64,000 nucleotides of DNA from a virus (taxonomy: Duplodnaviria; Caudoviricetes): the IMG/VR virus record IMGVR_UViG_3300019742_000001. One strand, 5' to 3'. Of the stretch, positions 23,471-49,143 are shown piece by piece. The notes under the pieces were generated by a model that worked only from the letters and a program-made list of their open reading frames with translations, ran no database searches and was not told where the DNA came from. Within the stretch, counting starts at the first letter, position 1; every line of letters starts with the position of its first letter. Both the position numbers and the translations under genes were made by a program.

Positions 23471-23740
23471 ATGACAACCTTACAACAAATAAGAAACCTA
23501 TCTCTTGAAGAAGCAAAAGAATTAATGTGGGGTACATATGGTATCGATGGCAATGATCCTTTAAAATTCGTTACATTAAACGAATGTGAAACTTCACACC
23601 TACACAACATCCACAAAAACATTCTATGTCGTGATACATTAACACCACAAAATATGAAATATATTAATGCTGTTGAATTGATCATAGATTCCAGACAACC
23701 AAAAGTATTATTGGATGAAGACCTATTTGTTGTCGATTAG
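23471..23740 (+). CDS. Conserved phage protein with DxLF tail
   Basis: WGTYGIDG..PL..V.L.E.ET.HL.NI, ends LLDEDLFVVD. Confidence 0.6.
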   Translation: MTTLQQIRNLSLEEAKELMWGTYGIDGNDPLKFVTLNECETSHLHNIHKNILCRDTLTPQNMKYINAVELIIDSRQPKVLLDEDLFVVD

Positions 23741-23814
23741 TCTTGATCATTCCGAAATATGATGTTACTATGTATTTGTGATTGACACTAACCCCTCTTT
23801 TCAGGAGACACAAA

Positions 23815-24240
23815 ATGAAAATTCAAAATATCGATAAGGCAACCGCAGTTATGTTAGGAGAAGAACTTTTCCAAGCGGCTCAATTGATTGCTCAAAAATA
23901 TGGGGTTGCTGTTACACGTGGGTCAGGGAAATACAGTGACCTTGAGTATAAAGTAAACAGTGTCACTTTCAGTGTCACCGACGAAAACTCTGACTCCAAT
24001 GATAGTTTCAGTGTGGCTCAGATTCAAAAGATGAAAGACGATTTCACTTTCAAAAAAAGTCTGGTTGCATTAGATGGGATCGAAGTTGGGGATATCTACT
24101 ATGATTCCAAACAAGATTCTGACATGAAAGTTCTTGGGTGGGATCGTAAGAAACGTAAGTATCCTATCTTGGTTGAATGTGTTAACACAAAAACCATCTA
24201 CAAAATGACTCCTGAATCTCTAAAAATTAAGTTCCTATAG
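23815..24240 (+). CDS. Hypothetical protein
   Basis: AGGAG SD, open frame. Confidence 0.6.
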   Translation: MKIQNIDKATAVMLGEELFQAAQLIAQKYGVAVTRGSGKYSDLEYKVNSVTFSVTDENSDSNDSFSVAQIQKMKDDFTFKKSLVALDGIEVGDIYYDSKQDSDMKVLGWDRKKRKYPILVECVNTKTIYKMTPESLKIKFL

Positions 24241-24255
24241 AAAGGGATTGACACT

Positions 24256-25913
24256 ATGACCGAATTATTACAGTTATTTCAAGTGTTTGAACCATACAGT
24301 GTTGTGTTCCTTTCTTATGTGATCATTTATGGAGGTGTTTTTGGTGTCCGAAACACCTATTTGAGAATCGTGTCTATTCTAAAACAACGTAAATTAAAAC
24401 AATCTGATTTCGGTAAACTGCTTGACGGTATCTGGTATTTCTGTTTCCTCGTTCTATATGTGATTGGGTGAATATTATGAAACAAAATTCAATGAGAGAA
24501 TTGTATTGGGTGGAAACTAGTCTGGCATTATCACTTAACATTCCAATCTTAGAAAGTGGTAAGGTTGGAACGGTTGCCGTTAATTACTCACGGATTGACC
24601 CCAAATACCGAGAACTGGTTGAACAAAAGGTTTATAGTGGTACACGAAGATCAGCACAAATGCGTTGACTCCTGATTTCTGATGTGAGATAATGTTTCTG
24701 TGGTTAGGGAGAAACAAACAACTCTTGAAAGGATATGATATGACCGACAAATTACAAGACGCTTTAAACGGATTTTTGTTAGCCGCTCAAGATGTCTATA
24801 ATGATTACATCAAAGTGAACGGTTTCACTATGACAGATAAATTATCTTATACTGTTGGTCGTAAATACATCAAAGTAATCCAAGGTAGTTCTGTTCATAC
24901 CTTCATCAATATGGAGAATGGTGATATCCTCAAACCTGCTAGTTTCAAGTCTCCAGCAAAACACGCGAGAGGTAATGTATACACTAAAGACTTTGGTAAA
25001 TCTTGTCTAACACCTCACGGTCCAAAATACCTATAAGGAGTTTTAAATGAGTAGTAACAGTAGTAACAGTAGTGGTCCATTAATTGCTGTATTGTTCACA
25101 ATGTTTCTTGGGTTTTTGAAGTTATGTGGTGTCAATATCCCTTGGATGTGGGTATTTTTCCCGATCTGGTTCCCTACAGCAGTTGTATGTTGTTTGGTGT
25201 GTTGTCTGTTTATTCTGGTAGTTTTCTCTTTAATTTTCACTGCATTTTCATATCTGATTAGTGGGTATAAGGATTAGTAATGTTAAAAACAATATGGTAT
25301 AATATGTTTTGTTATGGTAAATTCTGGAAAGGAACTCACGATTGGGTTGTATCAGAAAAAAGCCCGTATGGTGAATTTATGAATGAGTATCGATGTAAAA
25401 AATGTAAACGAAAAAGGTTGTGGTAATGAAAGATTTATTCGTATCTTATGCATTATCATTTAAAAATAAACATCCTGATATGGGTAATATCATAATCAGG
25501 ACTGAATTGGATTCTGTTGAAGAGATCCGATCAACAGAAATGTATATTCAAAAAGAACTATATAAACTTGATCCTTATATGTACCCAGAAGATACAGAAG
25601 TTATAATCATTAATTGGAAGGTGTTATGAAAAGACAACAACAGACTACAAGAAAACTGACACTGACTACGATGAAAAAAGAATGTCCTGAATGTTACAGT
25701 GTTCAATTCTGTTTCTTTGGTGATCAAAAATCATTTAATGAATGGACATGTCCAGTGTGTAATGGGAGAATTGACGCAGATGAAGATTTTATTTCCGATG
25801 AAAGAAAAAGTGAAATTAGGAACAGAAAGGACAGTGACGAAGTTCCTTTGGTTACCGAAGACAGCGTATCTGAGCAAGACGAACCACCAACTACAGATGA
25901 GAGTTCTCTGTAA
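24256..25913 (+). other. Run of short early ORFs (24256-24471, 24468-24668, 24740-25036, 25047-25277, 25420-25629, 25626-25913)
   Basis: Coupled ORFs with SDs. 24740 has the GRKYIK...HTFI..G.ILKPAS.K.PAKHARGN phage family motif, 25047 is a TM peptide, and 25626 has a Zn ribbon. Confidence 0.6.
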
Positions 25914-26045
25914 ATCAACGTGGGTTGAACGATATGACTCTTGGTTGTCTATGCCTCCTGACGGACCATATACTTGTGGGTATTCACCAAGTCAACTGAA
26001 ACATGATACTTGTGGTTGGCGTATCAAATATTGGAAGGATTAGAA

Positions 26046-26348
26046 ATGAAAAATCTTGTATTGTTAGTTGTTGTATTGGTGATGTTAACTGGTTGTTCTG
26101 AGAGTGTTGTAGTTTACCCACAAGATAATGAATTTGCTGTTAACATATGTTCGGTTAATGGTGGAGTAAACAATTTTGAAGTTGTTGTTAACTCAGGTAT
26201 GTATAACGATATGATTATTACCTGTAATGATGGTGCTGTGTATCACGCGGATATCGTCAGAATTATGACCAAACAACACAACCAGAATGGTAATATAAGT
26301 GAGGTTTGGAGGGGATACGAAGATCACACTTGGAAGGTTAAGAAATGA
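26046..26348 (+). CDS. Putative lipoprotein
   Basis: MKNLVLLVVVLVMLTG|C lipobox. Confidence 0.65.
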   Translation: MKNLVLLVVVLVMLTGCSESVVVYPQDNEFAVNICSVNGGVNNFEVVVNSGMYNDMIITCNDGAVYHADIVRIMTKQHNQNGNISEVWRGYEDHTWKVKK

Positions 26349-27015: not shown

Positions 27016-27070
27016 CCAATTAACTGATAGACTGTTTCTATCTTATAACACAAACCGAAAGGAACAAAAA

Positions 27071-27787
27071 ATGCAACTTGATATGAAATTCAATCTGATG
27101 AAACAACAAAAGACACTTTGTCCTAAATGTGGGTTTGCTCCTACATTCCAGAAACAGTGGTCAATGGATTATGTAGAAGAATGTTCACCTGACTCAGACT
27201 GTGTATGGGAAGATGAAGATGTGAAAGAACATATGCATATGAATTGCCCTGATTGTGGATTTGAATTGGTGGTTCCTTGTCTGGATTATGATGATAAAAT
27301 CGTAGAACAATTCAATAACTCTGTGGTTCAAACTCCAATTATTACACCAAAGACGTTTAATCCACCAGCACGACCATTGAGTACACCAGTGTCTTTGAGT
27401 AACCCTACCAATCACACACCACCTGTATACAAAGCACCTGTTGATCCGTGGTCAGTTGAGTGTACTGGATGCCCTTGTTCAACAGAAAAGAAAGAAGTGT
27501 CACAATAAGAGGATATTATGATAACCAAAGACAAAATAAATAATCTAACACAAATTACAAACCGTATTATTGGGAATTCTGATGACGAGAAGGTGCGTAA
27601 GTGTGGAGAAATATTCAATATATTGATAACGAATATTGATTGTTTGTTGGATGAAGTCGAATGGTTGAAAGAGGAAAACGAGTCTCTGCGTTTTGAGGTT
27701 TCCGATAAGAAATTTGAAGAATCCCCTCAACGCAGAACTCGTAATACTCGTAATCAAACTCTTGATTTTGGTGGTCACCCGTTTTAA
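27071..27787 (+). other. Two ORFs: Zn-ribbon protein (27071-27508) and coiled-coil protein (27518-27787)
   Basis: CPKC/CPDC pairs, GAGG SD. Confidence 0.55.
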
Positions 27788-27797
27788 AGGTGTTTGT

Positions 27798-28157
27798 ATG
27801 AAACAATATAAAAGAGATAGACAACTGTTATCAGAAAAGTTTTCTCGTATACCAAAACCGATTAAAAATCAAATGTGGTTACGGGCTACAAGAAGAGTTG
27901 CACTGGATGTCTACAATTATCATAAAAGAATTGATGACTTCTATTTGTCATGGGATTTCTTCCTTCGAAATATAACAAACGAACTTGGTGGGGATGAATA
28001 TAAGGTATACGATACAGTAAAATGTGATGCCTTGGAACTCACTCCATATTATGATATCTACTTGAAATGTATGTCGAAGTTAAAAATTCTTAAAGAAAAA
28101 TCTGAGTATCTGAATAAGAATTATATTCCATTAGAAGACGATTTATTTGAGGTGTGA
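27798..28157 (+). CDS. Hypothetical protein with DxLF tail
   Basis: Start MKQYKR, ends IPLEDDLFEV. Confidence 0.6.
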   Translation: MKQYKRDRQLLSEKFSRIPKPIKNQMWLRATRRVALDVYNYHKRIDDFYLSWDFFLRNITNELGGDEYKVYDTVKCDALELTPYYDIYLKCMSKLKILKEKSEYLNKNYIPLEDDLFEV

Positions 28158-28411
28158 TTGTGAAATTTAAAGTTGGTGAAAAAGTTGGTTTCTCTGAAAA
28201 CTGTATTACCTGTGTATCAAATGGGGAATGGTCGAATGAACCATCAAGATTAGTAAATAGAGGATGGGCTATTGTCGTGAGCGGTAAAATGTCAAATTCT
28301 AATGAATATTTTGTATATAAATTAGAAGGAGCCCCTCATGGTTGGGCTGAATACGAACTTGAGAAATTAAAACCGAAATACAAATTACCTTCTGATTTAT
28401 TTGAAATTTAA
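28154..28411 (+). CDS. KOW/SH3-like small protein with DxLF tail
   Basis: KFKVGEKV..., ends LPSDLFEI. Confidence 0.6.
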   Translation: MIVKFKVGEKVGFSENCITCVSNGEWSNEPSRLVNRGWAIVVSGKMSNSNEYFVYKLEGAPHGWAEYELEKLKPKYKLPSDLFEI

Positions 28412-28421
28412 TGGAGTATAA

Positions 28422-30120
28422 ATGAGTACTAAAATATATAACGCATATAAAGTAGAATCTTGTTATTGTATTGACGATGTTATAAAGTCACTGATTAAAA
28501 CAAGGGAATTATACCATAAACATATAGTTGATTATTTGGCTGGCGACTATGATAATATCAAGAACCGTAATGGGATAACCAATGTATACGGTCTATCTCA
28601 AATACTTAAAGACGATATTGTTGATCAAGGTATTTTTGATTATACCGCTTCAGTTGTGTTGTATGTAAACAAAGGGTGTGTCTATATACAATTCTTTGGT
28701 TTTGATAACAAAACATTTGATGAGGTCGTAAAACCTGTCTTTGGTAGAATGATGGTTGATTATCATTACCAGAACCAATCAGATCCTTGGTATGAATATG
28801 AAGAAAATTTAACACCAGATAAAAGACTGTTGTATGATAAAGAATATGAAGAACGCAGGATAGTTTGGGAAGAAATTTTTGGTGATGATTATGTTCCATC
28901 GTCTCGCGGTCTGTCATATGACTTCTATACCAAAAGTGATGTGATCCATATTGTTTATGACGTTAAAGATGAATTGGATAGTGGTGAGTAATTTCCTTGA
29001 CTCTGAGTAGGGACAGGTCTATACTGTTCTTACCTCAGACGAAAGGAATTAAAGATGACCGTTTCTTATACCGATATCTACAATAAAATCAACCTTTCAA
29101 ATAACGGCAAGATGATGTTGAAGAATTTCACCAAAGAGGAAAAACTTGTTATTGGTGAAATGAAGACTAAAAATCTTGTTGCTCCAGCACAATTCATGAC
29201 TCTTGCTGACTCTGTTAAAATCCACCCTATGAACACGGAGGTTTAAGATGTCAGAAATTCAACGGTCTTACACAATTATAGCAGAAGACGATACACTGAA
29301 AAATTTGATCAGTGACTATCTGGAATATTCTCATTATGATAAACCTATAAAAAAACTATTTGAATCCAGTTCTGACTATGATAATCGGGTAGATGAATTT
29401 AAAAAATCAGATGGTGTATTGGGTCGATATCATAAAATGAAAGAACAGATTAAATTACTTTATCCTGAATTCCGAACAGACCATCATTGGATAGGGGCTA
29501 TTAATATTAAGAATGGTCTAAAAATGTTTGAAATCAAAACTGTTATTAATGTTCAACCAGCAAAAGTGATTGAGGAGGAAGTTGTATGTTAAGTAAATTT
29601 AAAAAATGGTTCTTACGGTCTTTTATCGGTGCCGTTCTCTTTAACAAAAATATCACCAGAGGTCAAATATACATATTAAGGGGTGGAAGTAACAAAGGTA
29701 ATCCATTCAGTGATGATAAGAACCATACTGTTGAGATCATTGATGTCAAAGATGGGTTTGTGAACTATAAGTTTGTGGGTTCTACTATTTTCATTAACGA
29801 GTCTATGAAGACAAGTGTATTCAATGGTGTATATCGGTTAACTGATGATTAAAGTCGGTGATAGAATCAGAATCAAACCATATGATGAGGTCAAGGAATA
29901 TATTATAGAAGATGATTGTGGTGGTATGCATATGACATATGACTTATATGAGGATCTTCGGCATATGATAGAATACTGTGATCAAATTCTAACTGTATCA
30001 GAAATAAAACTTCACCCATTTGTAGATCTTAATGTATATACTACAATTATAGATAGTAAACGGTTATCATGGTTACCTATGTGGTTTAATCTATACAATG
30101 GAGATAGTGATGAAAATTAG
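28422..30120 (+). other. Run of hypothetical ORFs (28422-28991, 29055-29246, 29248-29592, 29586-29852, 29845-30120)
   Basis: Coupled ORFs with SDs and a sigma70 promoter at 28997. Confidence 0.55.
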
Positions 30121-30349
30121 ACAAAATAAATTCAATAAAGGTGATAGAGTCGTATGTGTTGAAGATTACCTCCCATACAGTGGATGTTTTCTTGAAGAAG
30201 GATCAGTGTATGTAGTTGATATCGTTGATGAATTTGGTTTTGTTGGATTAAAAGGTGTAGATGAAGAAGGTGTTACTTGTTGGTCAGATAGTAGATTTGA
30301 CTTATATTTACCGCCAAATAATTTTAATGAGGATTTATTTATTATATGA
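30110..30349 (+). CDS. KOW/SH3-like small protein with DxLF tail
   Basis: KFNKGDRVVC...WSDSRFDLY, ends NFNEDLFII. Confidence 0.6.
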   Translation: MKIRQNKFNKGDRVVCVEDYLPYSGCFLEEGSVYVVDIVDEFGFVGLKGVDEEGVTCWSDSRFDLYLPPNNFNEDLFII

Positions 30350-31149
30350 ATCAAAAAACTTTAAATAGACGGTGTTGGCGACAAGGGATTGGTCTTCATT
30401 CAGGAAGAGAAGTCTCTGTTGAATTAATCCCTCGTCGAATTAATGAAGGAATTAACTTTTTGGTTAATGGTGAAATTATACCCTTTAATGCTGACAATAT
30501 AACAAACACAGAATTATCTACTACAGTTGGTGGTCAAGTGTCAACCGTAGAACATTTAATGTCCGCTCTTTATATATGTGGTGTCACTAATCTTATTATC
30601 AAGGTTGATGGTGATGAAATTCCTGTGCTTGATGGTAGTGCAATTGAATGGGCGAATCTCATTCGTTCTGTTGGAGTGGTTAGTCAGAATGATGTGGTGG
30701 ACCAAATCCGTGTAGCAAGAACTCTTGAGGTTACTGATGGTGACTCTTATATAAGAATCGTTCCTAATAACAAATTAGTGATTAACTTTTCTGTTGATTT
30801 CAAACAACCTATCGGTATCCAACAACACACTCTTTTAAATGAAGAAGATTTCTTTACTGATATTGCCCCCGCCAGAACATTCGGTTTCCTTGAAGATTTC
30901 TCATACCTAAAAGAAAGAGGTTTGGGTTTGGGTGTGTCGTTAAACAATGTTGTTGGATTCACCAAATATCAAGTGATGAATAAAGAAGGTCTTAGATTTG
31001 ACAATGAACCTGTTCGACACAAGATCTTGGACCTCATTGGGGATTTCAGTGCATTAGGTCGTCCGTTGATAGGATATGTTGAGGCTTATAAATCTGGTCA
31101 CAAATTAAACCATTTGATGGTGAAAGAGATATTAGACAATGAAATTTAA
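30346..31149 (+). CDS. lpxC: UDP-3-O-acyl-GlcNAc deacetylase LpxC
   Basis: GIGLHSG, VSTVEHLMSAL, EIPVLDGSA, APARTFGF, LRF.NEPVRHKILDLIGD, KSGHKLN. Confidence 0.95.
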   Translation: MNQKTLNRRCWRQGIGLHSGREVSVELIPRRINEGINFLVNGEIIPFNADNITNTELSTTVGGQVSTVEHLMSALYICGVTNLIIKVDGDEIPVLDGSAIEWANLIRSVGVVSQNDVVDQIRVARTLEVTDGDSYIRIVPNNKLVINFSVDFKQPIGIQQHTLLNEEDFFTDIAPARTFGFLEDFSYLKERGLGLGVSLNNVVGFTKYQVMNKEGLRFDNEPVRHKILDLIGDFSALGRPLIGYVEAYKSGHKLNHLMVKEILDNEI

Positions 31150-31360
31150 AAAAGGTGATATCATTGTATGTATCGACAGTGGAAAATTCTCTGATCGGAT
31201 CACCAACAACAAAGAATATGTTGTATCAAAGTATATGGAACGTATGGATCTTGTTATCGTTGAAATGGATGATATTGGTAATAAAGAAGTAGGTTGGTTT
31301 GATAAAAGGTTTCGACACAAACTACCACAAATACTTGATGAGAGTTTGTTTACATTATGA
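31139..31360 (+). CDS. MKFKKGD-family small protein with DxLF tail
   Basis: Ends ILDESLFTL. Confidence 0.65.
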   Translation: MKFKKGDIIVCIDSGKFSDRITNNKEYVVSKYMERMDLVIVEMDDIGNKEVGWFDKRFRHKLPQILDESLFTL

Positions 31361-31596
31361 AATTTAAAAAAGGTGATATCATTATATGTACAGAACCACA
31401 CAGTAACTTTTTGACAGTCGGTGACCTGTATACAATAATTAGGGTGGAAATAACTGATTATTGGGGTGATGGTGACGATGTTGAAAGACATGTCATAGTG
31501 TTAGACGATAATGGAAATGAATCTGGTTGGTATTTTGATCGATTTGAACTCTATGTCAAACCATATAATTTAGATGAGGATTTATTTGTGATATGA
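31357..31596 (+). CDS. MKFKKGD-family paralog with DxLF tail
   Basis: DDNGNESGWYFDRFELYVKP, ends LDEDLFVI. Confidence 0.65.
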   Translation: MKFKKGDIIICTEPHSNFLTVGDLYTIIRVEITDYWGDGDDVERHVIVLDDNGNESGWYFDRFELYVKPYNLDEDLFVI

Positions 31597-31841
31597 AATT
31601 TAAAGAGGGTGATATTGTTATCTGTCTCAATGAATTCAGTATCAATGGAATCAGTAACATTGTGACAAAAGGAAACTTGTATACAGTACTTCGGGTTGAA
31701 TTGACCGTATATCAAAACGGTGTTAATGAATACTCTATTTTTGTGATAGATGATCGTGGTAATGAAACTGGTTGGATGTTTGATCGATTTGAACTCTATG
31801 TAAAACCAAACAACTTTGACGATGATTTGTTTGTATTATGA
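31593..31841 (+). CDS. MKFKEGD-family paralog with DxLF tail
   Basis: DDRGNETGWMFDRFELYVKP, ends FDDDLFVL. Confidence 0.65.
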   Translation: MKFKEGDIVICLNEFSINGISNIVTKGNLYTVLRVELTVYQNGVNEYSIFVIDDRGNETGWMFDRFELYVKPNNFDDDLFVL

Positions 31842-31898: not shown

Positions 31899-31951
31899 AT
31901 TGACCGTCTCGTTGAGCGTTAGACCATCTAACGACCATTATATTGCATATT

Positions 31952-36777: not shown

Positions 36778-36996
36778 TTGAAAGGATTACCATATATGTT
36801 ATCAAATGAAACTGTTCGTGCTCTTGCTACTGCTCTCCGTTACTATGTACTATATGAAAGATCTAATCCAGAAGTCGGTATGGGTCCATCATTACCATGT
36901 CAAACCTCTGATATTCTTATTACTTCACAAATTGATGACACTAACGAAAATCGAACTCAAGTCATGACGGCTTATAATGAAAGATGGTCACGATGA
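36778..36996 (+). CDS. Hypothetical protein
   Basis: First ORF after the divergent promoter region. Confidence 0.4.
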   Translation: MKGLPYMLSNETVRALATALRYYVLYERSNPEVGMGPSLPCQTSDILITSQIDDTNENRTQVMTAYNERWSR

Positions 36997-37250
36997 ACAA
37001 ATTTAAAGTAGGGGATATCGTAAAAGTTAAACAGAATCTTACTGAGGTTGAGGGCAAATTTGGTGTCATTGACCGTATGAGAGAAATGTCTGGAAATACA
37101 TTTACTATATCTGAAGTGGTTGAACATTTTAACCCTCCAAGTAAATGCTCATATTCTTTAGATGGAGTGTCAAATCTTGGTTGGTACGATGAGTGGTTAG
37201 AACTATATGTTGAACCTGTCAAACTACCAGAGGATCTTTTTATATTATGA
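36993..37250 (+). CDS. KOW/SH3-like small protein with DxLF tail
   Basis: MNKFKVGDIVKVK, ends EPVKLPEDLFIL. Confidence 0.65.
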   Translation: MNKFKVGDIVKVKQNLTEVEGKFGVIDRMREMSGNTFTISEVVEHFNPPSKCSYSLDGVSNLGWYDEWLELYVEPVKLPEDLFIL

Positions 37251-37501
37251 ACAACTTTAAAGTAGGGGATAAAGTTTGTGTCAAGACAGATTATACAAAT
37301 GAATATATGAATCCTAATAGTAGCCAATATAATAAAGAAAATAGTTTTCTGACTCATCACGGTCAACACCCATTCTATACCATATCTAGTATATCTGATT
37401 GTGGTAATTTTATTAGATTCAATGACTATGATAATGGATGGTCTAAAATCGTTTTTGAGTTATATAAAGAAACTTTTGATGAGGAGCTTTTTCATGTATA
37501 A
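37247..37501 (+). CDS. KOW/SH3-like small protein with DxLF tail
   Basis: MNNFKVGDKV, ends TFDEELFHV. Confidence 0.65.
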   Translation: MNNFKVGDKVCVKTDYTNEYMNPNSSQYNKENSFLTHHGQHPFYTISSISDCGNFIRFNDYDNGWSKIVFELYKETFDEELFHV

Positions 37502-37787
37502 AGTCGGTGATAAAATTAAAATTAAATCTTATAAAGAAATACATTCTCTATTGGAATTCGATAGTGACGGTGACGGTTTTACTAATACCATTCATTTTAA
37601 TGAAGAAAGAATGAAGAATGCCTGTGGTAAGACATTAACAATCATTAAAATAAGACCTTCTCCTGATGACCCTAATATTATATTATATGTTGCTCCAGTA
37701 AATGGTGATGAGTGGTGTTGGATTAAAGAATGGATCGAACCTTTTATCGAACCTGTTAAACTACCAGAGGATTTATTCATATTATGA
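37494..37787 (+). CDS. KOW/SH3-like small protein with DxLF tail
   Basis: MYKVGDKIKIK, ends EPVKLPEDLFIL (same tail as 36993). Confidence 0.65.
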   Translation: MYKVGDKIKIKSYKEIHSLLEFDSDGDGFTNTIHFNEERMKNACGKTLTIIKIRPSPDDPNIILYVAPVNGDEWCWIKEWIEPFIEPVKLPEDLFIL

Positions 37788-38008
37788 TATTCAAAAAAGG
37801 GGATGTAGTTGTGATTGACGAAAATACCAAATATGGTTTTTATAAAATGAAACTTAATCATCTTGTGGGTAAACCTCCGTATACCATATACAGTATATCA
37901 GAGAATGACCGTATCAAATTCTCTAAATTCGGTGACTCTTATCCTAATGACATGTTTGTATCATGCACTCAACCGATTCAACTTGATGATGACCTTTTTC
38001 AAATTTGA
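37784..38008 (+). CDS. KOW/SH3-like small protein with DxLF tail
   Basis: MIFKKGDVV, ends QLDDDLFQI. Confidence 0.65.
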   Translation: MIFKKGDVVVIDENTKYGFYKMKLNHLVGKPPYTIYSISENDRIKFSKFGDSYPNDMFVSCTQPIQLDDDLFQI

Positions 38009-41500: not shown

Positions 41501-41610
41501 GATTTATTAATGAGAAATATGTTAGAGGTTGATATAGATTAAATGAAGAGAAAAGTTGTTTTATGTTAATTTTTGAGAACAGTTGATATGTATGTTGTTA
41601 TATTGTTTAA
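38480..41610. other. Large AT-rich, mostly non-coding region and candidate replication origin
   Basis: No credible ORF except the GIY-YIG. Repeated ACCATATGTG, pyrimidine-rich left and purine-rich right flanks, and an IHF-like site at 41291-41303. Confidence 0.45.
39782..40690 (-). mobile_element. GIY-YIG (Seg-like) homing endonuclease with Zn-ribbon DNA-binding module
   Basis: YQVYKATNTINGKGYVG...R...H...LESYYI...PNGYNMTTGG and CPNGH...RCGVC, with TATAAATA at 40725. Confidence 0.85.
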
Positions 41611-41617
41611 TCATTGT

Positions 41618-41920
41618 TTATACCTCAAAGAGATCATTGGGTAGATTGTTAATAGAAGGATCAATGAGAATGGTAGCATATTCATCGTAGTTGAGTGAGT
41701 GTTGTTGATGATCTTTGAAACGATTGTGATCAATGGATGTATGTTCAGTAGGATGTACAACTTTCATATTAATTAAGTCATATTCATATTTAGCGTTAGA
41801 TAATTGAATGATAGCATTGAAAGGGATTCTGTTGTTATCTTCGGAGTTATGAATAGTGACGAGAGTTCCAATAGGGAGATATTGTAATAGTTTTTTATTA
41901 TATTGTTGTTTCATGGTCAT
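41618..41920 (-). CDS. Array family A protein (LPIGT.VTIHNS), DxLF tail
   Basis: Ends INNLPNDLFEV. Confidence 0.7.
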   Translation of the reverse strand: MTMKQQYNKKLLQYLPIGTLVTIHNSEDNNRIPFNAIIQLSNAKYEYDLINMKVVHPTEHTSIDHNRFKDHQQHSLNYDEYATILIDPSINNLPNDLFEV

Positions 41921-41922
41921 GT

Positions 41923-42201
41923 TTATACCTCAAAGAGATCATTGGGTAGAGAAGAGTTAATGGTAGCATATTCGTTCTCATTAAGAGAGTGTTGGTTATG
42001 TTTTTTAAAACGACTGTGATTGATAGTTGTGGGTTCAGTAGGATGTACAACTTTCATATTAGAGTGGTCGTAACTGAATTCAATGATAGCTAATTGAATG
42101 ATAGCTTGGAATGGTTGATCATTGTTATCTTCGGAGTTATGAATAGTGACGTGTGTGCCAATAGGTAGATCTTGTAATTGTTGTTTATTATATCGTTTCA
42201 T
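41923..42201 (-). CDS. Array family A protein
   Basis: Ends SSLPNDLFEV. Confidence 0.7.
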   Translation of the reverse strand: MKRYNKQQLQDLPIGTHVTIHNSEDNNDQPFQAIIQLAIIEFSYDHSNMKVVHPTEPTTINHSRFKKHNQHSLNENEYATINSSLPNDLFEV

Positions 42202-42203
42202 GA

Positions 42204-42488
42204 TTATACCTCAAAGAGATCATTGGGTAGATTGTTAATAGAAGGATCAATGAGAATAGTAGCGTATTCATTGGGTTCTAATAAGTGTTGATTATATTGA
42301 GTAAAGGTATGATGAGAAAGCATGATACCGACATCAGGGTTAATAGCCCGAGAATTGTTACCGTATACCAAAGAGTCTTGAGATATTTGAATGGTTCCAT
42401 TGAAAGGAGTAGGGTAAAAGTCAGAGTTATGAACAGTGACGTGAGTTCCAATAGGGAGATCATCAAGGTTATGGTATCGTTTATTCAT
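42204..42488 (-). CDS. Array family A protein
   Basis: C-terminal 21 aa identical to 41618. Confidence 0.7.
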   Translation of the reverse strand: MNKRYHNLDDLPIGTHVTVHNSDFYPTPFNGTIQISQDSLVYGNNSRAINPDVGIMLSHHTFTQYNQHLLEPNEYATILIDPSINNLPNDLFEV

Positions 42489-42490
42489 AG

Positions 42491-42757
42491 TTATACCTCA
42501 AAGAGATTGTCATCAAATAGGTTCGTCATTTTTGTTATGCCAGTTTTTGTTATGCCAGTAATTCTACATTCAGGTGTCCAATGAGTTCCATAGAATGTGA
42601 ATCTGCTGTGTCTTAGGTTATGGTTATTGTCAATAGGTTTAGTGCAATACCCAATAGCAGTGCTAGAGTTTTCAAATCCAACAATTCTTACATTGAATGA
42701 ATGATTGTCATGTTGTATTGTAACTAAATCGTTCACCTTATATTTGTGGTTATTCAT
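42491..42757 (-). CDS. Array family B protein
   Basis: N-terminal ~48 aa almost identical to 43024, ends LFDDNLFEV. Confidence 0.7.
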   Translation of the reverse strand: MNNHKYKVNDLVTIQHDNHSFNVRIVGFENSSTAIGYCTKPIDNNHNLRHSRFTFYGTHWTPECRITGITKTGITKMTNLFDDNLFEV

Positions 42758-42759
42758 AG

Positions 42760-43020
42760 TTATACCTCAAATAGATCATCATCAAATAGTGAGTCATCTA
42801 ATATAGAGAAGGTTTCTTTGTTAACGACATAGTGTTGTTTATTTTTTTTGTACATTGAGTGGTCCAAAAAGATATCAGGGTTAATAACTTTAATATTAGA
42901 GTTAGGAACAAATTGGACCGAACCATTGAAAGGTTTATAATCGTTATACTCAGAGTTATGAATAGTAACTCTAGTACCAATATGGATATTTTGTAGATGA
43001 TTAGGTTGATGTTTAATCAT
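42760..43020 (-). CDS. Array family A protein
   Basis: Ends LFDDDLFEV. Confidence 0.7.
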   Translation of the reverse strand: MIKHQPNHLQNIHIGTRVTIHNSEYNDYKPFNGSVQFVPNSNIKVINPDIFLDHSMYKKNKQHYVVNKETFSILDDSLFDDDLFEV

Positions 43021-43023
43021 TGG

Positions 43024-43290
43024 TTATACCTCAAATAGATCATTAGGTAAAAGGTTTTTAGGTAAAAGGTTTTTAGGTTTAACTAATGAGATAACACATT
43101 TTTCCGTAATCCAATGAGTTCCATTTAATTTATATCTGGGATGGTCAAGTTTATGGTTATCATCAATAGGTTTAGTGCAATACCCAATAGCAGTGCTAGA
43201 GTTTTCAAATCCAACAATTCTTACATTGAATGAATGATTGTCATGTTGTATTGTAACAATATCATTCACCTTATATTTGTGAGTATTCAT
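43024..43290 (-). CDS. Array family B protein
   Basis: Ends LLPNDLFEV. Confidence 0.7.
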   Translation of the reverse strand: MNTHKYKVNDIVTIQHDNHSFNVRIVGFENSSTAIGYCTKPIDDNHKLDHPRYKLNGTHWITEKCVISLVKPKNLLPKNLLPNDLFEV

Positions 43291-43292
43291 AG

Positions 43293-43559
43293 TTATACCT
43301 CAAAGAGATCATTAGGTAAAGGGTTAATGATCGTAAAAGATTCATTATCACTAAGGAAATGTTGTTTATTATTTTGGTAACGAGGATGATCTAATTGTAC
43401 ATCAGGTCTAACCAAGTTAATCTTATGTAGAGGATCTTTAGATAATTCAACAGTTCCAGAGAAAGGAATGCCATCATTATATTCAGTATTGGAAATATTG
43501 ATACGAGTACCAATAGGAAGATTTTGAATTAGATCATTAGGTTTATGTTTATCAGACAT
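43293..43559 (-). CDS. Array family A protein
   Basis: Ends PLPNDLFEV. Confidence 0.7.
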   Translation of the reverse strand: MSDKHKPNDLIQNLPIGTRINISNTEYNDGIPFSGTVELSKDPLHKINLVRPDVQLDHPRYQNNKQHFLSDNESFTIINPLPNDLFEV

Positions 43560-43562
43560 TGA

Positions 43563-43835
43563 TTATACCTCAAAGAGATCATTAGGTAAATGGTTAATGA
43601 TCGTAGCATATTCATCTTCACATATTTGGTGTTGTTTGTTTGATCTGTATCTGCCGTGGTCAATGAATACATCAGGGTTAATGACTTTGGTTTTCGATTC
43701 AGATATTTTTGTAGAGAATTGAACAGTGCCCGTGAAGGGTTGATTGTTATTATATGTAGTGTCATGGATAGTAACACGTGTACCAATAGGAAGATTTTCA
43801 ATAGATTGTTGATTATAATGTTTATTCATGTTCAT
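43563..43835 (-). CDS. Array family A protein
   Basis: Ends HLPNDLFEV. Confidence 0.7.
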   Translation of the reverse strand: MNMNKHYNQQSIENLPIGTRVTIHDTTYNNNQPFTGTVQFSTKISESKTKVINPDVFIDHGRYRSNKQHQICEDEYATIINHLPNDLFEV

Positions 43836-43837
43836 AG

Positions 43838-44116
43838 TTATACCTCAAAGAGATCATCAGGTAAGTTGTTACATTCGTAATTGATTATAGAGAAATATTC
43901 ACCATGGCACATAAAGTGTTGTTCGTGTATTCTATAGCGATCGTGTGATATTATAACGTGTTCATCAGGTTTAATAACTTTTTGGTTACGTTCATTACGG
44001 TCTAAGGATAGTTCTACCGTGGCATTAAAAGGTTTTCTATTATTGTATACCGAGTTATGAATAGTAACACGAGTACCAACATTTATAGATTGTAATTCTT
44101 CAGGGAGAAGTTTCAT
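43838..44116 (-). CDS. Array family A protein
   Basis: Ends NLPDDLFEV. Confidence 0.7.
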   Translation of the reverse strand: MKLLPEELQSINVGTRVTIHNSVYNNRKPFNATVELSLDRNERNQKVIKPDEHVIISHDRYRIHEQHFMCHGEYFSIINYECNNLPDDLFEV

Positions 44117-44529: not shown

Positions 44530-44603
44530 AATTGTGATCCTTTCAAAAAGAGTTAGTCTTGGTTACAGATCTATAGTAACACACTGGCATAATGAGTCAA
44601 GAG

Positions 44604-44855
44604 TTAAATAGTGAATAAGTCATTGTCAAGAATATGTATAGGTTTAGTGATATTGTCTAATGCAAGGTGATCTTCACAGTAAGAGTTGGATGATCCGGTA
44701 TCCCATTGTACCTTATAATTAAGTCTACCAGAATTATCGTCTTCAATAATAGTGCCAACAACCTTACCATATTTACCTCCATACTGAGGGTTGTTGATGT
44801 GGTCAGAATACTCATCTGTAATCAGTCTTACTCTATCATATATTTTAAATTTCAT
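44604..44855 (-). CDS. Array family C protein, paralog of 45861
   Basis: NNP.YGGK.G.VVG.I, ends ILDNDLFTI. Confidence 0.7.
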   Translation of the reverse strand: MKFKIYDRVRLITDEYSDHINNPQYGGKYGKVVGTIIEDDNSGRLNYKVQWDTGSSNSYCEDHLALDNITKPIHILDNDLFTI

Positions 44856-44858
44856 AAG

Positions 44859-45251
44859 TTATACCTCAAAGAGATTATCGTCAAAGGATGATTTCAAGTA
44901 AGTATCAACTTTATTACATACATCAACAGGAGCGTTACGTCGAGTATTGGTTATGTAATCAATGAAGTCATATTTATTTTCGGATGAATTTAAGTTTCTA
45001 ACGAATACCCCTCTCATGATATAGGCAACAGGTTTGATAAATTCCATTTCAAAGTGATGGAATGGGTCACCAAATTCATAAATATCGTATCCATGACCAA
45101 AACTATCATGTCCAAGTCGAATGAATCTGTTATCAGGTGACAGAGAAGTGATCATATAAGGAGGTTCACCATATCGGTCAAGGTGTTCTTTGGCATTTTG
45201 TGTTCTACCTGTCAATACTTGAACATAGTCACCTACTTTAAATGGATTCAT
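44859..45251 (-). CDS. KOW-like protein with DxLF tail
   Basis: MNPFKVGDYV, ends SFDDNLFEV. Confidence 0.65.
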   Translation of the reverse strand: MNPFKVGDYVQVLTGRTQNAKEHLDRYGEPPYMITSLSPDNRFIRLGHDSFGHGYDIYEFGDPFHHFEMEFIKPVAYIMRGVFVRNLNSSENKYDFIDYITNTRRNAPVDVCNKVDTYLKSSFDDNLFEV

Positions 45252-45253
45252 AG

Positions 45254-45580
45254 TTATACCTCAAACAGATCATTGTCAAGAAATTGTGGTTTAGTGATTA
45301 CAATGAAGCCATAGTCAACTTTCTGTTTATATTTCTGACAGTACATCATTAGTATTTCCATATCATTATCTAGTTTAATGGCGTATACAGTATCACGACT
45401 GAATTCATGTTGACTACTGTTAATAATAACACCAGTTAGTCCAACCAAATTTTCAGAGTCACTATACCCACTAACATAGTTTTTCAATTGAAGTTTGTTA
45501 GCCATGTCTTGGTATGTTGAGTAGCATTTACCAGTATCAACAATTTCAACATGGTCACCAATTTGTGGATCTTTATTCAT
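45254..45580 (-). CDS. Array family D protein
   Basis: PQIGD.V.I...G..Y.TY..MA.KL.L, ends FLDNDLFEV. Confidence 0.7.
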   Translation of the reverse strand: MNKDPQIGDHVEIVDTGKCYSTYQDMANKLQLKNYVSGYSDSENLVGLTGVIINSSQHEFSRDTVYAIKLDNDMEILMMYCQKYKQKVDYGFIVITKPQFLDNDLFEV

Positions 45581-45582
45581 AG

Positions 45583-45858
45583 TTACACCTCAAATAATTT
45601 ATCATCGGTGAAGTCATTGATATTATATCGTTGACCTTTCCAAGTGTTATAGTTTTCGTTACGGCATTCAATAGGTACGTAATTTTCGATATACTGAATA
45701 TGGTCATTCCAAAATGGTTTGATCATAGGATGTGCGTGTAACAGTGCTTCATCATATCGACCACGTAATAATAATTCAGTACAAGAACCAGCAGGGATAC
45801 CGTGTTCTATCCACATATCAATAGCACTAACAATATTATCATCAACACATAGATTCAT
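45583..45858 (-). CDS. Helical phage protein with DxLF-like tail
   Basis: EHGIPAGS..., ends FTDDKLFEV. Confidence 0.65.
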   Translation of the reverse strand: MNLCVDDNIVSAIDMWIEHGIPAGSCTELLLRGRYDEALLHAHPMIKPFWNDHIQYIENYVPIECRNENYNTWKGQRYNINDFTDDKLFEV

Positions 45859-45860
45859 AG

Positions 45861-46112
45861 TTATACCTCAAATAAGTCATCATCAAAAAGAGGAGGTTGG
45901 ATATCCAATACCAGATCTTTATCACAATAATTGTTGTACCTGTCATCCGTCCACTTAACATTATATACGAATTGGCTATCTCCATCATTAATTGACGTAA
46001 TCTCACCAACAACATTTCCGTGTTTGCCGCCATATAATGGATTATTTGAAAGGTCACCATACTTACCACTAACATATCTTACTTTGTCACCTAATTTAAA
46101 CATAATTATCAT
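45861..46112 (-). CDS. Array family C protein
   Basis: Ends LFDDDLFEV. Confidence 0.7.
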   Translation of the reverse strand: MIIMFKLGDKVRYVSGKYGDLSNNPLYGGKHGNVVGEITSINDGDSQFVYNVKWTDDRYNNYCDKDLVLDIQPPLFDDDLFEV

Positions 46113-46456
46113 ACCTCAAAGAGATTATCATCAAAAAGATTGGGAGTTGAAGTGACAATGAAACCACGATTTTGTTCCCCATAAGTATACTCGTATCCGA
46201 TAATAATATCAATAGGATTATTATCATCAAGTATGAGTCTGACACCATATACCATTCTATTTTCTTCTTGTAGGTGTTTGCCTTTTGCGACGATCACTCC
46301 TACCATACCTTCTTTGATTATATCACTACCAACAACTTTCATAAAATTAAAATATTCCAATTTAAGATTGATAGCCATTTCAAAGTAGCTGGGATATATC
46401 TCACCAGAATTGGTAATTTTTACATTATCGCCAATTTGTGGTTCTCTGTCAGTCAT
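46109..46456 (-). CDS. Array family D protein
   Basis: RGFIVTSTPNLFDDNLFEV. Confidence 0.7.
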   Translation of the reverse strand: MTDREPQIGDNVKITNSGEIYPSYFEMAINLKLEYFNFMKVVGSDIIKEGMVGVIVAKGKHLQEENRMVYGVRLILDDNNPIDIIIGYEYTYGEQNRGFIVTSTPNLFDDNLFEV

Positions 46457-46458
46457 AA

Positions 46459-46758
46459 TTATACCTCAAATAGTGAGTCATCTAATATATTGGGAGTTGA
46501 AGTGACAATGAAACCACGATCTGATTCATCTGCACTGTAACCCATTAAAATATCAGTACCATTTTGTAATCGTATACCGTAAATTAACTTTCCTGTATCA
46601 GATCCAGAAATAACACCAATTTCTCCGTTCTTGGTGGTTAAATTAGATATGTAATTGGTAAGATTCAGTTTATCAGCCATTAATTGGTAAGTGGTATATT
46701 GTCTGCCATTGTTGGTGATTTTGACACTATCACCAATTTGTGGGAAATTTGTATTCAT
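46459..46758 (-). CDS. Array family D protein
   Basis: RGFIVTSTPNILDDSLFEV. Confidence 0.7.
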   Translation of the reverse strand: MNTNFPQIGDSVKITNNGRQYTTYQLMADKLNLTNYISNLTTKNGEIGVISGSDTGKLIYGIRLQNGTDILMGYSADESDRGFIVTSTPNILDDSLFEV

Positions 46759-46760
46759 AA

Positions 46761-47015
46761 TTATACCTTACCCTTTGCCATAGATTTGAAACCTTCACTA
46801 ATTAATTTCATCCGTGATGGTGTGTAATTACTGCAACCGAAGTCGTGATTAATACTTGATGGGTGTGTTTCAACTCTATCCATCAATGTAATTTTTTCAC
46901 CTTCTACTGGGCAATGAGTGATTTTGGTTTGTTGGTGATTACATTTAACAAGTTTACTGTCAAACATATTCCGACTTAACCATTTACAATCTTTACAAAA
47001 TATTTTTGGTTCCAT
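46761..47015 (-). CDS. Cys-containing small protein, first gene of the array operon
   Basis: CKDCKW...C...N....C. It ends KGKV but keeps the AGGTATAA junction. Confidence 0.65.
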   Translation of the reverse strand: MEPKIFCKDCKWLSRNMFDSKLVKCNHQQTKITHCPVEGEKITLMDRVETHPSSINHDFGCSNYTPSRMKLISEGFKSMAKGKV

Positions 47016-47070
47016 AGATGTGCCTTTCTATTTGGTTATGGATAGATATTACAGTAGGTGGTATGATGAG

Positions 47071-47325
47071 TCAAGAGTTAAATGTATATGTATCAGGTAG
47101 TTGATCAGTGATGGGTTGGTCATCTTTGTAATGCCATAGTAATTGGAATCCTTCTGAGGTTAGAAAAATCCCCTCCAAGACGATAATACCAGCATGTGTT
47201 AATTTATGGCAATTTGGACATAGGAGGCAGATATTCGATTTAGAATTATCGCCCCCTTTTGACCTACTCTGTATGTGGTGTTTGTCCAATAGTGCTGGAG
47301 TGTTGCATATTTGACAAGGTTTCAT
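47071..47325 (-). CDS. Small HNH endonuclease
   Basis: CQIC...KHHIQSRSKGG.N..SNICLLCPNCHKLTH. Confidence 0.88.
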   Translation of the reverse strand: MKPCQICNTPALLDKHHIQSRSKGGDNSKSNICLLCPNCHKLTHAGIIVLEGIFLTSEGFQLLWHYKDDQPITDQLPDTYTFNS

Positions 47326-47360
47326 TAAGATATTATAGTATGTGTGTCACTTAATGTCAA

Positions 47361-48170
47361 TTACTCGTTAATCATTTCGTCTAATAGTTTTGTTTTAACC
47401 ACACTGGTATAGATATCATATCCAACAAGTATAGAGTTACCATCTGTCCAACATTCTCTATCATCATTCTTTGGTAATGCACCACCAGCAACGATTAGCT
47501 TGAATTTATAAGGTTTGAGTATTTCGTTCAACATTTCGGAACATGATTTATCGTGATCAACCATATATGTCAACAATTGATTTGATGTTTTATTAAAGAA
47601 TTCTATTCTGGCATCACTATTCATATTTGCCCACATTTCATCGATACGCATAACAGAATCTCTAAGAGTATTCCAATCTTTGGCAATGTATTTCTTTTCA
47701 CCTATGAGTCTATTATATAGTTCAGACAGTTCATAGTTAACATCAGCAATAGTGGTATAATATCCTTTGAAACTATCCCAGAAATCACTAGCAGGGCATA
47801 ATCCAATAGAAGAATTATCATAAGGTAGTACAAGGTATCGTTCATCCATAGTGCCATATGCCCCATCAAGACTACTTGAGCATATAAGTGATTGACTTCT
47901 TTTAGGAAATTTAGACCATTGTTTTGAGTTATCTATCCATAGAGTATAATGATTATCAGTATTTGCTGATTTTCTATTGAATTTGGATGGTTCAACATAA
48001 CCGAAGTCACTACGAATAGACACATGACCTCTAAATAGACCTTGTTTATCTTCTGTGAATCGTCTCCATGCTTTACGACAGTTTTTCTTGATGATTTGTG
48101 CTGCTTCATCCATGTTAACGACTTTGGTTCTACCTTCTTTTGATTCTGATATAAACGATTGTAATCTCAT
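47361..48170 (-). CDS. ADP-ribosyltransferase-like protein (subfamily 2) with CTS leader
   Basis: MRLQSFISE; LFRG, RKSANTDNHYTL, SLICSS, RECW; TATAAATA at 48201. Confidence 0.55.
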   Translation of the reverse strand: MRLQSFISESKEGRTKVVNMDEAAQIIKKNCRKAWRRFTEDKQGLFRGHVSIRSDFGYVEPSKFNRKSANTDNHYTLWIDNSKQWSKFPKRSQSLICSSSLDGAYGTMDERYLVLPYDNSSIGLCPASDFWDSFKGYYTTIADVNYELSELYNRLIGEKKYIAKDWNTLRDSVMRIDEMWANMNSDARIEFFNKTSNQLLTYMVDHDKSCSEMLNEILKPYKFKLIVAGGALPKNDDRECWTDGNSILVGYDIYTSVVKTKLLDEMINE

Positions 48171-48256
48171 TGAATAATATTCTCCTGTGTGGTATACTAT
48201 TATTTATATTTACAGTGATAATTTATGGTGTTATATTATAGGAAAAGGGGGTATAT

Positions 48257-48535
48257 ATGTCGTTCAAAGAGGGTGATAGTGTTAGGTTACTTCTGTGTAA
48301 AGATATGAATGTATCTTTACGTACTGAGTGGGCTGAGTGGTGGAAGAAAAACAAAAATACAGTATTCACTTTATCGGAATATCGGACAAATGGTAATTGG
48401 TTTATGAAATATCCTAATGGTGATACTGTGTATAATCTACGTGGTGGTGGTGATGACCCAATAACATTTAATCATACAGAGATATATGTATGTAATCCAC
48501 CTATTAAATGGGAAGAGGATTTATTTGAGATATGA
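48257..48535 (+). CDS. KOW-like protein with DxLF tail
   Basis: MSFKEGDSVRL, ends WEEDLFEI. Confidence 0.65.
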   Translation: MSFKEGDSVRLLLCKDMNVSLRTEWAEWWKKNKNTVFTLSEYRTNGNWFMKYPNGDTVYNLRGGGDDPITFNHTEIYVCNPPIKWEEDLFEI

Positions 48536-48888
48536 TTAAATATTATGCACTAAATGATGATAATATAGCAGTTGAGTGTAATATGGAGTATGCACTACTT
48601 TGTGGTACAGAGGATCTTGTTAGTAATATCATTCAACAAACAGATGTTAGTGATGGTTTGATGGTATCAACAATATTCTTGGGAATGGATCATTGTTTTG
48701 GTGGTAGTGAATCAACACCTTTGTTGTTTGAGACAATGTTGATGGGTAACACAGAAGAGGAAGAAGTATGTGTTAGATATGAAACATATGTTCAAGCAGT
48801 GGAAGGTCATTGGAATATGGTCAAAAGATATGGTGGTTCAAAACCAGTGTCGTTACCATTGTTAGATGATAATCTGTTTATCTTATAG
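48532..48888 (+). CDS. Conserved phage protein with DxLF tail
   Basis: VSTIFLGMDH..LLFETM..RYETY..A.EGH, ends LLDDNLFIL. Confidence 0.65.
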   Translation: MIKYYALNDDNIAVECNMEYALLCGTEDLVSNIIQQTDVSDGLMVSTIFLGMDHCFGGSESTPLLFETMLMGNTEEEEVCVRYETYVQAVEGHWNMVKRYGGSKPVSLPLLDDNLFIL

Positions 48889-49143
48889 GGTGAACAGATC
48901 ATCTTTGAAATGATTTGGTTGGTATTCACATAGATCAGTACAGTCATCTTTATCTAAGAATTGGTTTACCACATCCCATGTCATTTTATGTGTAATATTA
49001 TCATCTAATGAGACAAACTCAATATGTTGTCGTATACAATCATTCATTACGCACACCCATATAATGGGATCGTTAACTTCTGCCGAGTCAATCTCAATAT
49101 ATTGTTGTCCTCTAATAAAGTCTTTTGCCTTAGTCATTTTCAT
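48883..49143 (-). CDS. Hypothetical protein with DxLF tail
   Basis: Ends HFKDDLFTL, tail-to-tail with 48532. Confidence 0.6.
   Translation of the reverse strand: MKMTKAKDFIRGQQYIEIDSAEVNDPIIWVCVMNDCIRQHIEFVSLDDNITHKMTWDVVNQFLDKDDCTDLCEYQPNHFKDDLFTL

Follow-up and report, generated by a model that had tools for sequence, protein, structure and literature searches.

A common eight-residue C-terminal tail on 30 small early proteins of a T4-type metagenomic phage, a candidate docking motif

Introduction

The adaptor SspB reaches ClpX through a basic and hydrophobic C-terminal peptide (..LRVVK), and a cell has one or two adaptors of this kind. Poxvirus ankyrin-repeat (ANK) proteins carry the F-box-like PRANC module, a folded domain of approximately 50 residues found in eukaryotic viruses, whose hub (Skp1/Cul1) is known. 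Type I secretion signals, as in the proteases of Erwinia and Serratia, are C-terminal, with an acidic residue and then hydrophobic ones at the very end. In phage T4, gp43, gp55 and gp33 bind the sliding clamp gp45 by a short peptide, hydrophobic and acidic, at the C-terminus (PMC2988020). HslU's C-terminal tail, EDLSRFIL, docks into HslV, and the free octapeptide suffices for the HslU effect (PMC4106860). Here we describe a stretch of 64,000 nucleotides of phage DNA (Duplodnaviria, Caudoviricetes; IMG/VR record IMGVR_UViG_3300019742_000001), called the window below, in which 30 small early genes encode proteins that end in the same short tail.

The window belongs to a metagenomic phage contig of approximately 239 kb, recovered from samples of microbial mats and with a G+C content of 34%. 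It represents a distant T4-type phage whose family-B polymerase is approximately 30% identical to cyanomyovirus gp43, and the phages in GenBank include no close relative. Two relatives were used for comparison: scaffold_178, a 49.5-kb contig from a distant relative (orthologues 34-68% identical), and G003, a 98%-complete 236-kb IMG/VR genome whose polymerase is 65% identical to that of the window phage. A literature search with the motif strings and with the concept found no description of such a tail.

Results

Thirty small proteins end in the same tail

A first-pass annotation, made from the DNA letters alone, had listed about 30 open reading frames between 23471 and 49143 with a common C-terminus. 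All 30 were present and ended as described, two of them in slightly deviant form: the protein at 45583-45858 has Lys at position -5 (KLFEV), and that at 23471-23740 has one residue added after the motif (DLFVVD). The consensus of the last eight residues is hydrophobic-x-[DEN]-[DENS]-L-F-x-[VIL]-stop. The tailed genes are as follows.

23471..23740, plus strand: 89-residue non-barrel protein, tail ..LLDEDLFVVD
27798..28157, plus strand: 119-residue helical-looking protein, tail ..IPLEDDLFEV; the scaffold_178 orthologue is tailed too (..PLESDLFEI)
28154..28411, plus strand: SH3-like barrel (KFKVGE..), tail ..LPSDLFEI
30110..30349, plus strand: SH3-like barrel, tail ..FNEDLFII; its stop codon and the LpxC gene's start overlap
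31139..31360, plus strand: SH3-like barrel, tail ..LDESLFTL
31357..31596, plus strand: SH3-like barrel, modelled with AlphaFold2 (AF2), tail ..LDEDLFVI
31593..31841, plus strand: SH3-like barrel, last in its operon, tail ..FDDDLFVL, with codons that hold no Shine-Dalgarno (SD) sequence
36993..37250, plus strand: SH3-like barrel, tail ..LPEDLFIL
37247..37501, plus strand: SH3-like barrel, tail ..FDEELFHV
37494..37787, plus strand: SH3-like barrel, tail ..LPEDLFIL
37784..38008, plus strand: SH3-like barrel, operon-terminal, tail ..LDDDLFQI
41618..44116, minus strand: family A2, nine tandem paralogues, bodies 29-53% identical, tail [DN]LFEV invariant
41618-41920, 41923-42201, 42204-42488, 42491-42757 and 42760-43020, minus strand: family A2 members 1-5
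43024-43290, 43293-43559, 43563-43835 and 43838-44116, minus strand: family A2 members 6-9
44604..44855, minus strand: SH3-like (Mind-bomb-type) barrel, tail ..LDNDLFTI
44859..45251, minus strand: SH3-like barrel with an insert of about 45 residues before the tail, ..FDDNLFEV
45254..45580, minus strand: family A3 (PQIGDxV..), tail ..LDNDLFEV
45583..45858, minus strand: 91-residue non-barrel protein, variant tail ..FTDDKLFEV
45861..46103, minus strand: SH3-like barrel, tail ..FDDDLFEV
46109..46456, minus strand: family A3, tail ..FDDNLFEV
46459..46758, minus strand: family A3, tail ..LDDSLFEV
47332..47360, minus strand: perfect sigma-70 promoter (TTGACA-17-TATAAT) heading the operon that runs from 47325 to 41618
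48257..48535, plus strand: SH3-like barrel, tail ..WEEDLFEI
48532..48888, plus strand: 118-residue protein of a widespread alpha/beta phage family, tail ..LLDDNLFIL; scaffold_178 orthologue ..LPDELFIV
48883..49143, minus strand: 86-residue non-barrel protein, convergent with the gene at 48532, tail ..FKDDLFTL

In 29 window tails aligned at the stop, Leu at -4 and Phe at -3 were invariant (29/29 each). Position -8 was mostly Leu (18) or Phe (9), and -7 was Asp (15), Pro (10), Glu (2), Asn (1) or Lys (1). The two residues ahead of the Leu were predominantly acidic: Asp 13, Asn 8, Glu 7 and Ser 1 at -6, and Asp 21, Asn 4, Ser 2, Glu 1 and Lys 1 at -5. Position -2 was Glu in 18 tails and Ile, Thr, Val, His or Gln in the rest, while the last residue was Val (17), Ile (6) or Leu (6).

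In its strict form, [DENS]LFx[VILF] immediately followed by the stop in stop-to-stop frames of at least 40 codons, the motif had 28 matches in the window, compared to 0-1 in 30 codon-shuffles and a mean of 0.2 in ten further shuffles. Among 66 six-frame matches to the motif in the window, 29 adjoin a stop codon. All the tailed frames lie within 23.4-49.2 kb; the tail was absent at 1-23 kb, at 49.2-64 kb and in approximately 30 kb past the window end, and a control stretch of 50 kb from a T4-like cyanophage lacked it as well. In the minus-strand operon it is carried by 16 of 19 genes, and the perfect sigma-70 promoter heading this operon supports early expression by the host RNA polymerase.

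The core of the tail is maintained as a peptide

The first-pass annotation had noted that the tail codons often embed the SD sequence of the next gene, and this was right for the last two codons. Glu at -2 is encoded by GAG in 16/17 cases (23% genome usage) and Val at -1 by GTA in 15/17 (31% genome usage). At junctions of the minus-strand operon, which read GAGGTA-TAA-nn-ATG, the last two tail codons are the ribosome-binding site of the next gene. In the plus-strand operons the acidic codons (GAG GAT) contain the SD sequence, and stop and following start overlap (ATGA). In a related lineage, the final residues are N-D or N-A precisely where the next start codon overlaps (AATGAC). The last two residues of the tail are thus a compromise with translation signals.

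The same observations (the GAG and GTA bias, the stop-nn-ATG spacing or ATGA overlap directly after the tail, and the switch of the relatives' last codons to AAT GAC at the overlap) are those that favour an origin of the whole tail at the nucleotide level, as a ribosome-binding or translational-coupling cassette or as microhomology for recombination at gene junctions, with no role for the peptide. The core argues against this origin. Its amino acids are invariant, while its synonymous sites are nearly saturated: the proportions of synonymous and non-synonymous differences in D-L-F (pS and pN; Nei-Gojobori, all pairs) were 0.79 and 0.14, and all six Leu codons occur at -4 (TTA 8, TTG 2, CTT 3, CTC 9, CTA 3, CTG 3). 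Leu and Phe are present in 69/69 tails of two phages despite the use of the GC-rich codons CTC and CTG. As the first-pass annotation had claimed, genes that terminate an operon (31593, 37784 and 41618) and the convergent pair 48532/48883 retain D-x-LF; their acidic residues are encoded by GAT/GAC, not by the SD-like GAG. The synonymous diversity and the retention in terminal genes indicate that the core (hydrophobic-x-x-x-L-F, set at a constant distance from the C-terminus) is a feature of the protein. The earlier claim of protein-level selection was therefore sustained, and the outcome that had been named as its refutation, synonymous sites as conserved as non-synonymous ones, is clearly contradicted by the core. 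For the core, the nucleotide-level explanation is essentially refuted. The reads of four runs, compared to the window, revealed no microdiversity, and consequently no within-population ratio of non-synonymous to synonymous substitutions could be obtained.

The tail lies outside the fold

In the AF2 model of the family A2 protein at 43563-43835, the predicted local distance difference test score (pLDDT) was 83-91 in the barrel and below 50 in tail residues 84-90. In the model of 31357-31596, built on a 39-sequence alignment in which LF is also invariant, barrel residues 1-65 scored 82-93 and the tail block, with one helical turn, 69. The protein at 44859-45251 has approximately 45 extra residues between barrel and tail, and an alignment of 21 small barrels has a near-invariant Pro three residues ahead of the tail. 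As modelled, the tail is a flexible extension and not part of the fold.

Most, but not all, of the bodies are SH3-like barrels

Once the tails were trimmed, the bodies fell into 14 blastp clusters, and profiles of the three largest families showed no homology to one another (hhalign probability ≤15%). Nevertheless, approximately 25 of the 30 bodies have an xGDxV strand at their start and resemble small barrels of the SH3-like type. The first-pass description of many unrelated families was overstated, because most bodies share this fold and the N-terminal strand; it holds for the helical and alpha/beta carriers and for a DUF932 carrier in a relative. The AF2 barrel models reached mean pLDDT values of 80 and 85, the latter for a barrel of five strands. 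Foldseek neighbours of the barrel were all SH3-like (Mfd RID, nitrile hydratase beta, MSL3 chromo barrel, PsaE) with probabilities of 0.9-1.0, but E-values of just 0.03-0.2, and against PDB there was no significant named match except generic SH3-like barrels.

None of the window proteins matched the Pfam family SH3_15, and the body from a relative scored 21.9 bits, below the Pfam cut-off of 24. The family A1 profile did reach proteins with tandem Mind bomb repeats, whose own SH3_15 score is 235 bits. The larger barrel proteins are mostly tandem repeats and lack the tail; the proteins described here are single domains with a tail that fall below the cut-off.

The non-barrel carriers in the window are the helical-looking 27798, the alpha/beta protein 48532, and 23471, 45583 and 48883. 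The neighbours of 48532 in the Atlas, members of its widespread family, align to residues 1-105 of its 118 only. In G003, the tail is found on the DUF932 protein and on proteins of 127, 181 and 190 residues in the gp46/UvsX region. The tail is portable between folds.

Tail arrays occur in several uncultured phage lineages

An exhaustive HMMER search returned 718 barrel relatives. Among the best 150, the larger matches, mostly tandem-repeat proteins, bear the tail in 2/119 cases, and the ending L-[PD]-[DE]-[DE]-L-F-x-x is present on 18 small proteins of a single barrel encoded by other contigs. The 21 small barrels that were aligned, taken from the phages of the window and of scaffold_178 and from several further metagenomic contigs, have bodies 22-42% identical and invariant L-8, L-4 and F-3. 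Tail arrays were found in no fewer than five lineages of uncultured phages, and every lineage has a flavour of the motif that is its own.

Lineage 1, window phage: flavour DLFEV (D at -5 in 21/29 and V at -1 in 17/29)
Lineage 2, scaffold_178: 43 strict matches in 35 kb, flavour LP[DE]ELFxL (E at -5 in 34/40, L at -1 in 29/40, P at -7 in 33/40)
Lineage 3, small contigs: 11/11 genes tailed, flavour L[DE][DE]xLF[EN][VAD], tails ending ..LFND or ..LFNA
Lineage 4, contigs of 143 and 98 kb: flavour LD[EKP][KES]LFEI
Lineage 5, G003: flavour [DE]ELFxL, 18 strict matches vs. 0.5 in shuffles

Orthologue pairs whose bodies are 34-49% identical keep the tail, including two non-barrel genes. The families of one genome share a flavour, which differs from genome to genome. 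This is what a common reader of the tail predicts, and gene conversion among paralogues could contribute to it.

Other searches detected little. Among GenBank phages there was no near relative of the array, just distant Ralstonia matches for one barrel. Word-indexed protein searches returned the query alone. Patterns of the tail DNA in IMG/VR gave mostly chance-level single matches, with two tails each in only two small contigs, and an alignment-based locus search, restricted to the N-terminal strand, led to a Ralstonia prophage gene without the tail.

Comparison with known C-terminal tails

Like the tails described here, the T4 gp45-binding tails are located at the extreme C-terminus, follow a variable linker and are interchangeable between unrelated proteins. 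They differ in their carriers, three replication and late-transcription factors compared to 30-40 small early proteins here. The first-pass annotation had drawn this analogy, which is weakened because the polymerase of the window phage ends in a different, cyanophage-gp43-like tail. Its C-terminus is ..NQAFKAFFG, that of the G003 polymerase ..NQAFNFFFGG and that of cyanophage gp43 ..TITSFFG, the clamp epitope of T4 type, and none has the acidic-LF-x-hydrophobic form. The G003 gp55 homologue ends in a run of lysines, without such a tail. In G003, blastp with cyanophage gp45 found no gp45 homologue, and the Pfam model was silent there, as it was for the controls.

The bacterial beta-clamp motif QL[SD]LF shares the [SD]-L-F core, is often C-terminal and serves many unrelated clients of a ring-shaped hub. 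That half of the earlier beta-clamp analogy stands; the Gln and Leu positions do not, as Gln occupies position 1 in 0/29 tails and position 2 is acidic or Asn, not Leu. The tail also has two residues after the Phe and a conserved hydrophobic residue four positions upstream of the Leu. The analogy to acidic-aromatic tails of single-stranded DNA-binding protein (SSB) failed. The terminal Phe of the SSB tip (DDDIPF) is lacking: the tail Phe is at -3, rarely at -4, and never last.

Two observations in the relatives concern such C-termini. A 119-residue G003 protein (81629-81988, minus strand) ends in ..LLDDDIPF, a canonical SSB tip of bacteria; it may be a short SSB or a protein that mimics the SSB tail. 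In G003 (220571-221539) and in another relative, G004 (62537-63109 region), the gp32 homologues end in ..DALLAELSDM and ..DALLAELQDL, respectively, with no Phe; the gp32 C-terminus is a third distinct acidic-hydrophobic tail in the clade. These differing C-termini rule out the tail being a duplicate of the one on the polymerase, on gp32 or on SSB.

The tail resembles that of HslU in three respects: its third-last residue is Phe, it closes with a hydrophobic residue, and an acidic-Leu pair lies upstream. Several tails end in F-I-L. However, HslU has two residues between D-L and F and the tail none, and HslU is an ATPase, which the carriers here are not. In the window, Phe is at -3 in 29/30 tails and V, I or L at -1 in 29/29, while tails of relatives can end in A or D. 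The likeness to HslU is only a lead, and it becomes looser still toward proteasomal HbYX tails. SspB-type adaptors have the same layout (a folded binder, a flexible linker and a short C-terminal docking peptide), with no sequence similarity. The likeness to poxvirus ANK/PRANC proteins is in logic only, fast-diverging binders with one C-terminal module to a host hub. Finally, a class II PDZ pattern (hydrophobic at -1 and -3) holds in the window and fails in lineage 3 (..LFND/..LFNA) and in tails with one extra residue.

Genome context

The window also encodes a CCA-adding enzyme, an RNA ligase and homing endonucleases. NAD-salvage genes, RtcB, ClpP and the polymerase are located just past its end. 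Other features are listed below.

30346-31149, plus strand: full-length LpxC (UDP-3-O-acyl-GlcNAc deacetylase) homologue among the tailed genes (Pfam E 1e-88)
12780-20096, 49648-56986 and 58375-58977, various strands: proteins tagged with a shared N-terminal leader, a second shared tag
51884-52600, plus strand: papain-like peptidase, among the leader-tagged genes
58980-60494, plus strand: RimK-like ATP-grasp ligase, among the leader-tagged genes
L019 14903-15448 (approximately 17 kb past the window end) and G003 43150-43647: ClpP
G003 191777-193987: ClpB-type disaggregase of 736 residues without N-domain, best PDB match Thermus thermophilus ClpB (E 7e-260)

The lipid-A enzyme LpxC implies a Gram-negative host. 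The G003 AAA+ protein was considered as the Clp unfoldase that would partner the phage ClpP and was rejected, being ClpB without its N-domain. The N-terminal leader, M-[RK]-[LF]-x-x-Y-[LI]-x-E, is shared by at least 12 proteins, including many ART-like paralogues (PHROGs 12810 and 11975). Beyond the window end (L019 6876-11352), genes for RtcB, NAPRTase, a NUDIX protein, NAD synthase and an isochorismatase-like protein follow in a row, forming an NAD-salvage/RNA-repair block.

Just upstream of tailed genes, the window (27518-27787, plus strand) and L024 (649-945) encode orthologous coiled-coil-like proteins ending in ..DFGGHPF and ..GHPWDPPF, another conserved C-terminal aromatic tip. Gene-poor stretches (38570-39780 and 40950-41615) flank a homing-endonuclease gene (39782-40690); Rfam gave nothing in the window, these stretches included. 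A contig from run X3 joins window position 41906 to 47580 via 923 other letters, with 21 letters matching on each side, and could, on this weak indication, come from a strain in which the 5.7-kb tail-gene array was replaced. In G003, a gp46 (Rad50-like) homologue of 815 residues (181777-184224) has a weak intein-splicing match and an upstream 74-residue reading frame matches the gp46 N-terminus; judging from the sequence, the gene may be split or intein-bearing.

Discussion

The tail is probably a portable C-terminal docking motif, carried by diversified small early binder proteins that share one partner. That the tail binds a partner, and a single one, is what we infer. In such a mechanism, the host RNA polymerase would transcribe the genes early, as translationally coupled operons. 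Each fast-diverging body, mostly an SH3-like barrel, would bind a different target, and a Pro-containing linker would join these small, independently folded binder domains to a short linear docking motif formed by the eight C-terminal residues (hydrophobic -8, Leu -4 and Phe -3). The invariant tail, unfolded when alone, would insert its Leu/Leu/Phe into a single hydrophobic groove of the partner. Within the docking reading, about one third of the weight falls on the sliding clamp of host or phage, about one third on an adaptor-like docking site of a protease or unfoldase (as with SspB or HslU tails), and about one third on another phage protein.

Several points weigh against docking. One fold is common to most bodies, so part of the sharing of the tail is family inheritance. 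The tail codons of the nine-gene family A2 are nearly identical, and the uniformity of tails within a genome may owe something to recent duplication and gene conversion instead of to one reader. The sequence searches pointed to no partner of the tail, and the recruitment of 30-40 proteins to one hub lacks a worked-out biological rationale. The last two residues follow nucleotide needs and can be A or D in relatives, so the free C-terminus does not fit a PDZ-like reading throughout.

The main competitor for a peptide function is a degron or timer, by which early proteins, possibly with bound cargo, would be sent to an AAA+ protease, either to remove the early set or to deliver captured host proteins for destruction. 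The early proteins do carry an unstructured C-terminal peptide with a hydrophobic tip, the order of body, linker and short tail matches SspB-type adaptors, and the clade invests in proteostasis, with ClpP in the window phage and three relatives and the N-domain-less ClpB in G003. Nevertheless, the tail is unlike the known C-terminal tags for ClpX, ClpA, Lon or FtsH. In addition, the phage AAA+ protein is a ClpB-type disaggregase (its D2 aligns with ClpB and has no extra loop), ClpB is not a ClpP partner, and the DUF932 protein, a larger, stable-looking member of the replication module, is tailed too. We consider the degron unlikely. An arrangement with no external hub, in which the tail closes off its own barrel or is bound by other barrels in head-to-tail chains or a multivalent network, is less likely still. 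The AF2 models leave the tail undocked on its own barrel, non-barrel proteins carry it, and the larger, mostly tandem-repeat barrel matches almost never do. In its favour, there are tandem SH3_15 repeat proteins that might serve as scaffolds. It would account for the predominance of SH3-like barrels among the carriers, as SH3, Tudor and chromo barrels are peptide readers (chromo via a C-terminal helix), and for the conserved Pro-containing lead-in to the tail.

An export or packaging signal, e.g. type I secretion-like or virion-targeting, seems very unlikely. Type I signals resemble the tail in position and in their acidic-then-hydrophobic end, and the phage also tags other proteins, with the N-terminal leader; however, the promoters are early sigma-70 and not late, there are no secretion genes nearby, and replication-module proteins are tailed in G003. 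The nucleotide by-product set out above is, taken as a whole, hardly credible after the behaviour of the core.

Returning to docking on one partner, its most far-reaching form would be a clade of T4-like giant phages that deploy 15-40 fast-evolving mini-binders, each against a different target of host or phage, all with one eight-residue handle for a single hub, e.g. a protease or unfoldase pocket. We put this forward as a speculation that is improbable. The protease/unfoldase version is attractive because the tail resembles the HslV-opening HslU tail and the phages encode ClpP and ClpB. If true, it would be the bacterial-virus counterpart of the ANK/F-box targeted-degradation arsenals of poxviruses.

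The majority of small early genes in phages lack a known function, and here one peptide links 30 of them, and more than 40 in a relative. Since dozens of orphan proteins bear one peptide, a single pull-down with the eight-residue peptide could reveal their common partner, and the genome-specific flavours are a built-in co-variation test for candidate readers. Should the partner be a host hub (e.g. clamp, protease or RNA polymerase), these arrays would amount to a naturally occurring collection of small binders for host takeover or anti-defence, and the tail peptide would serve as a ready-made recruitment tag.

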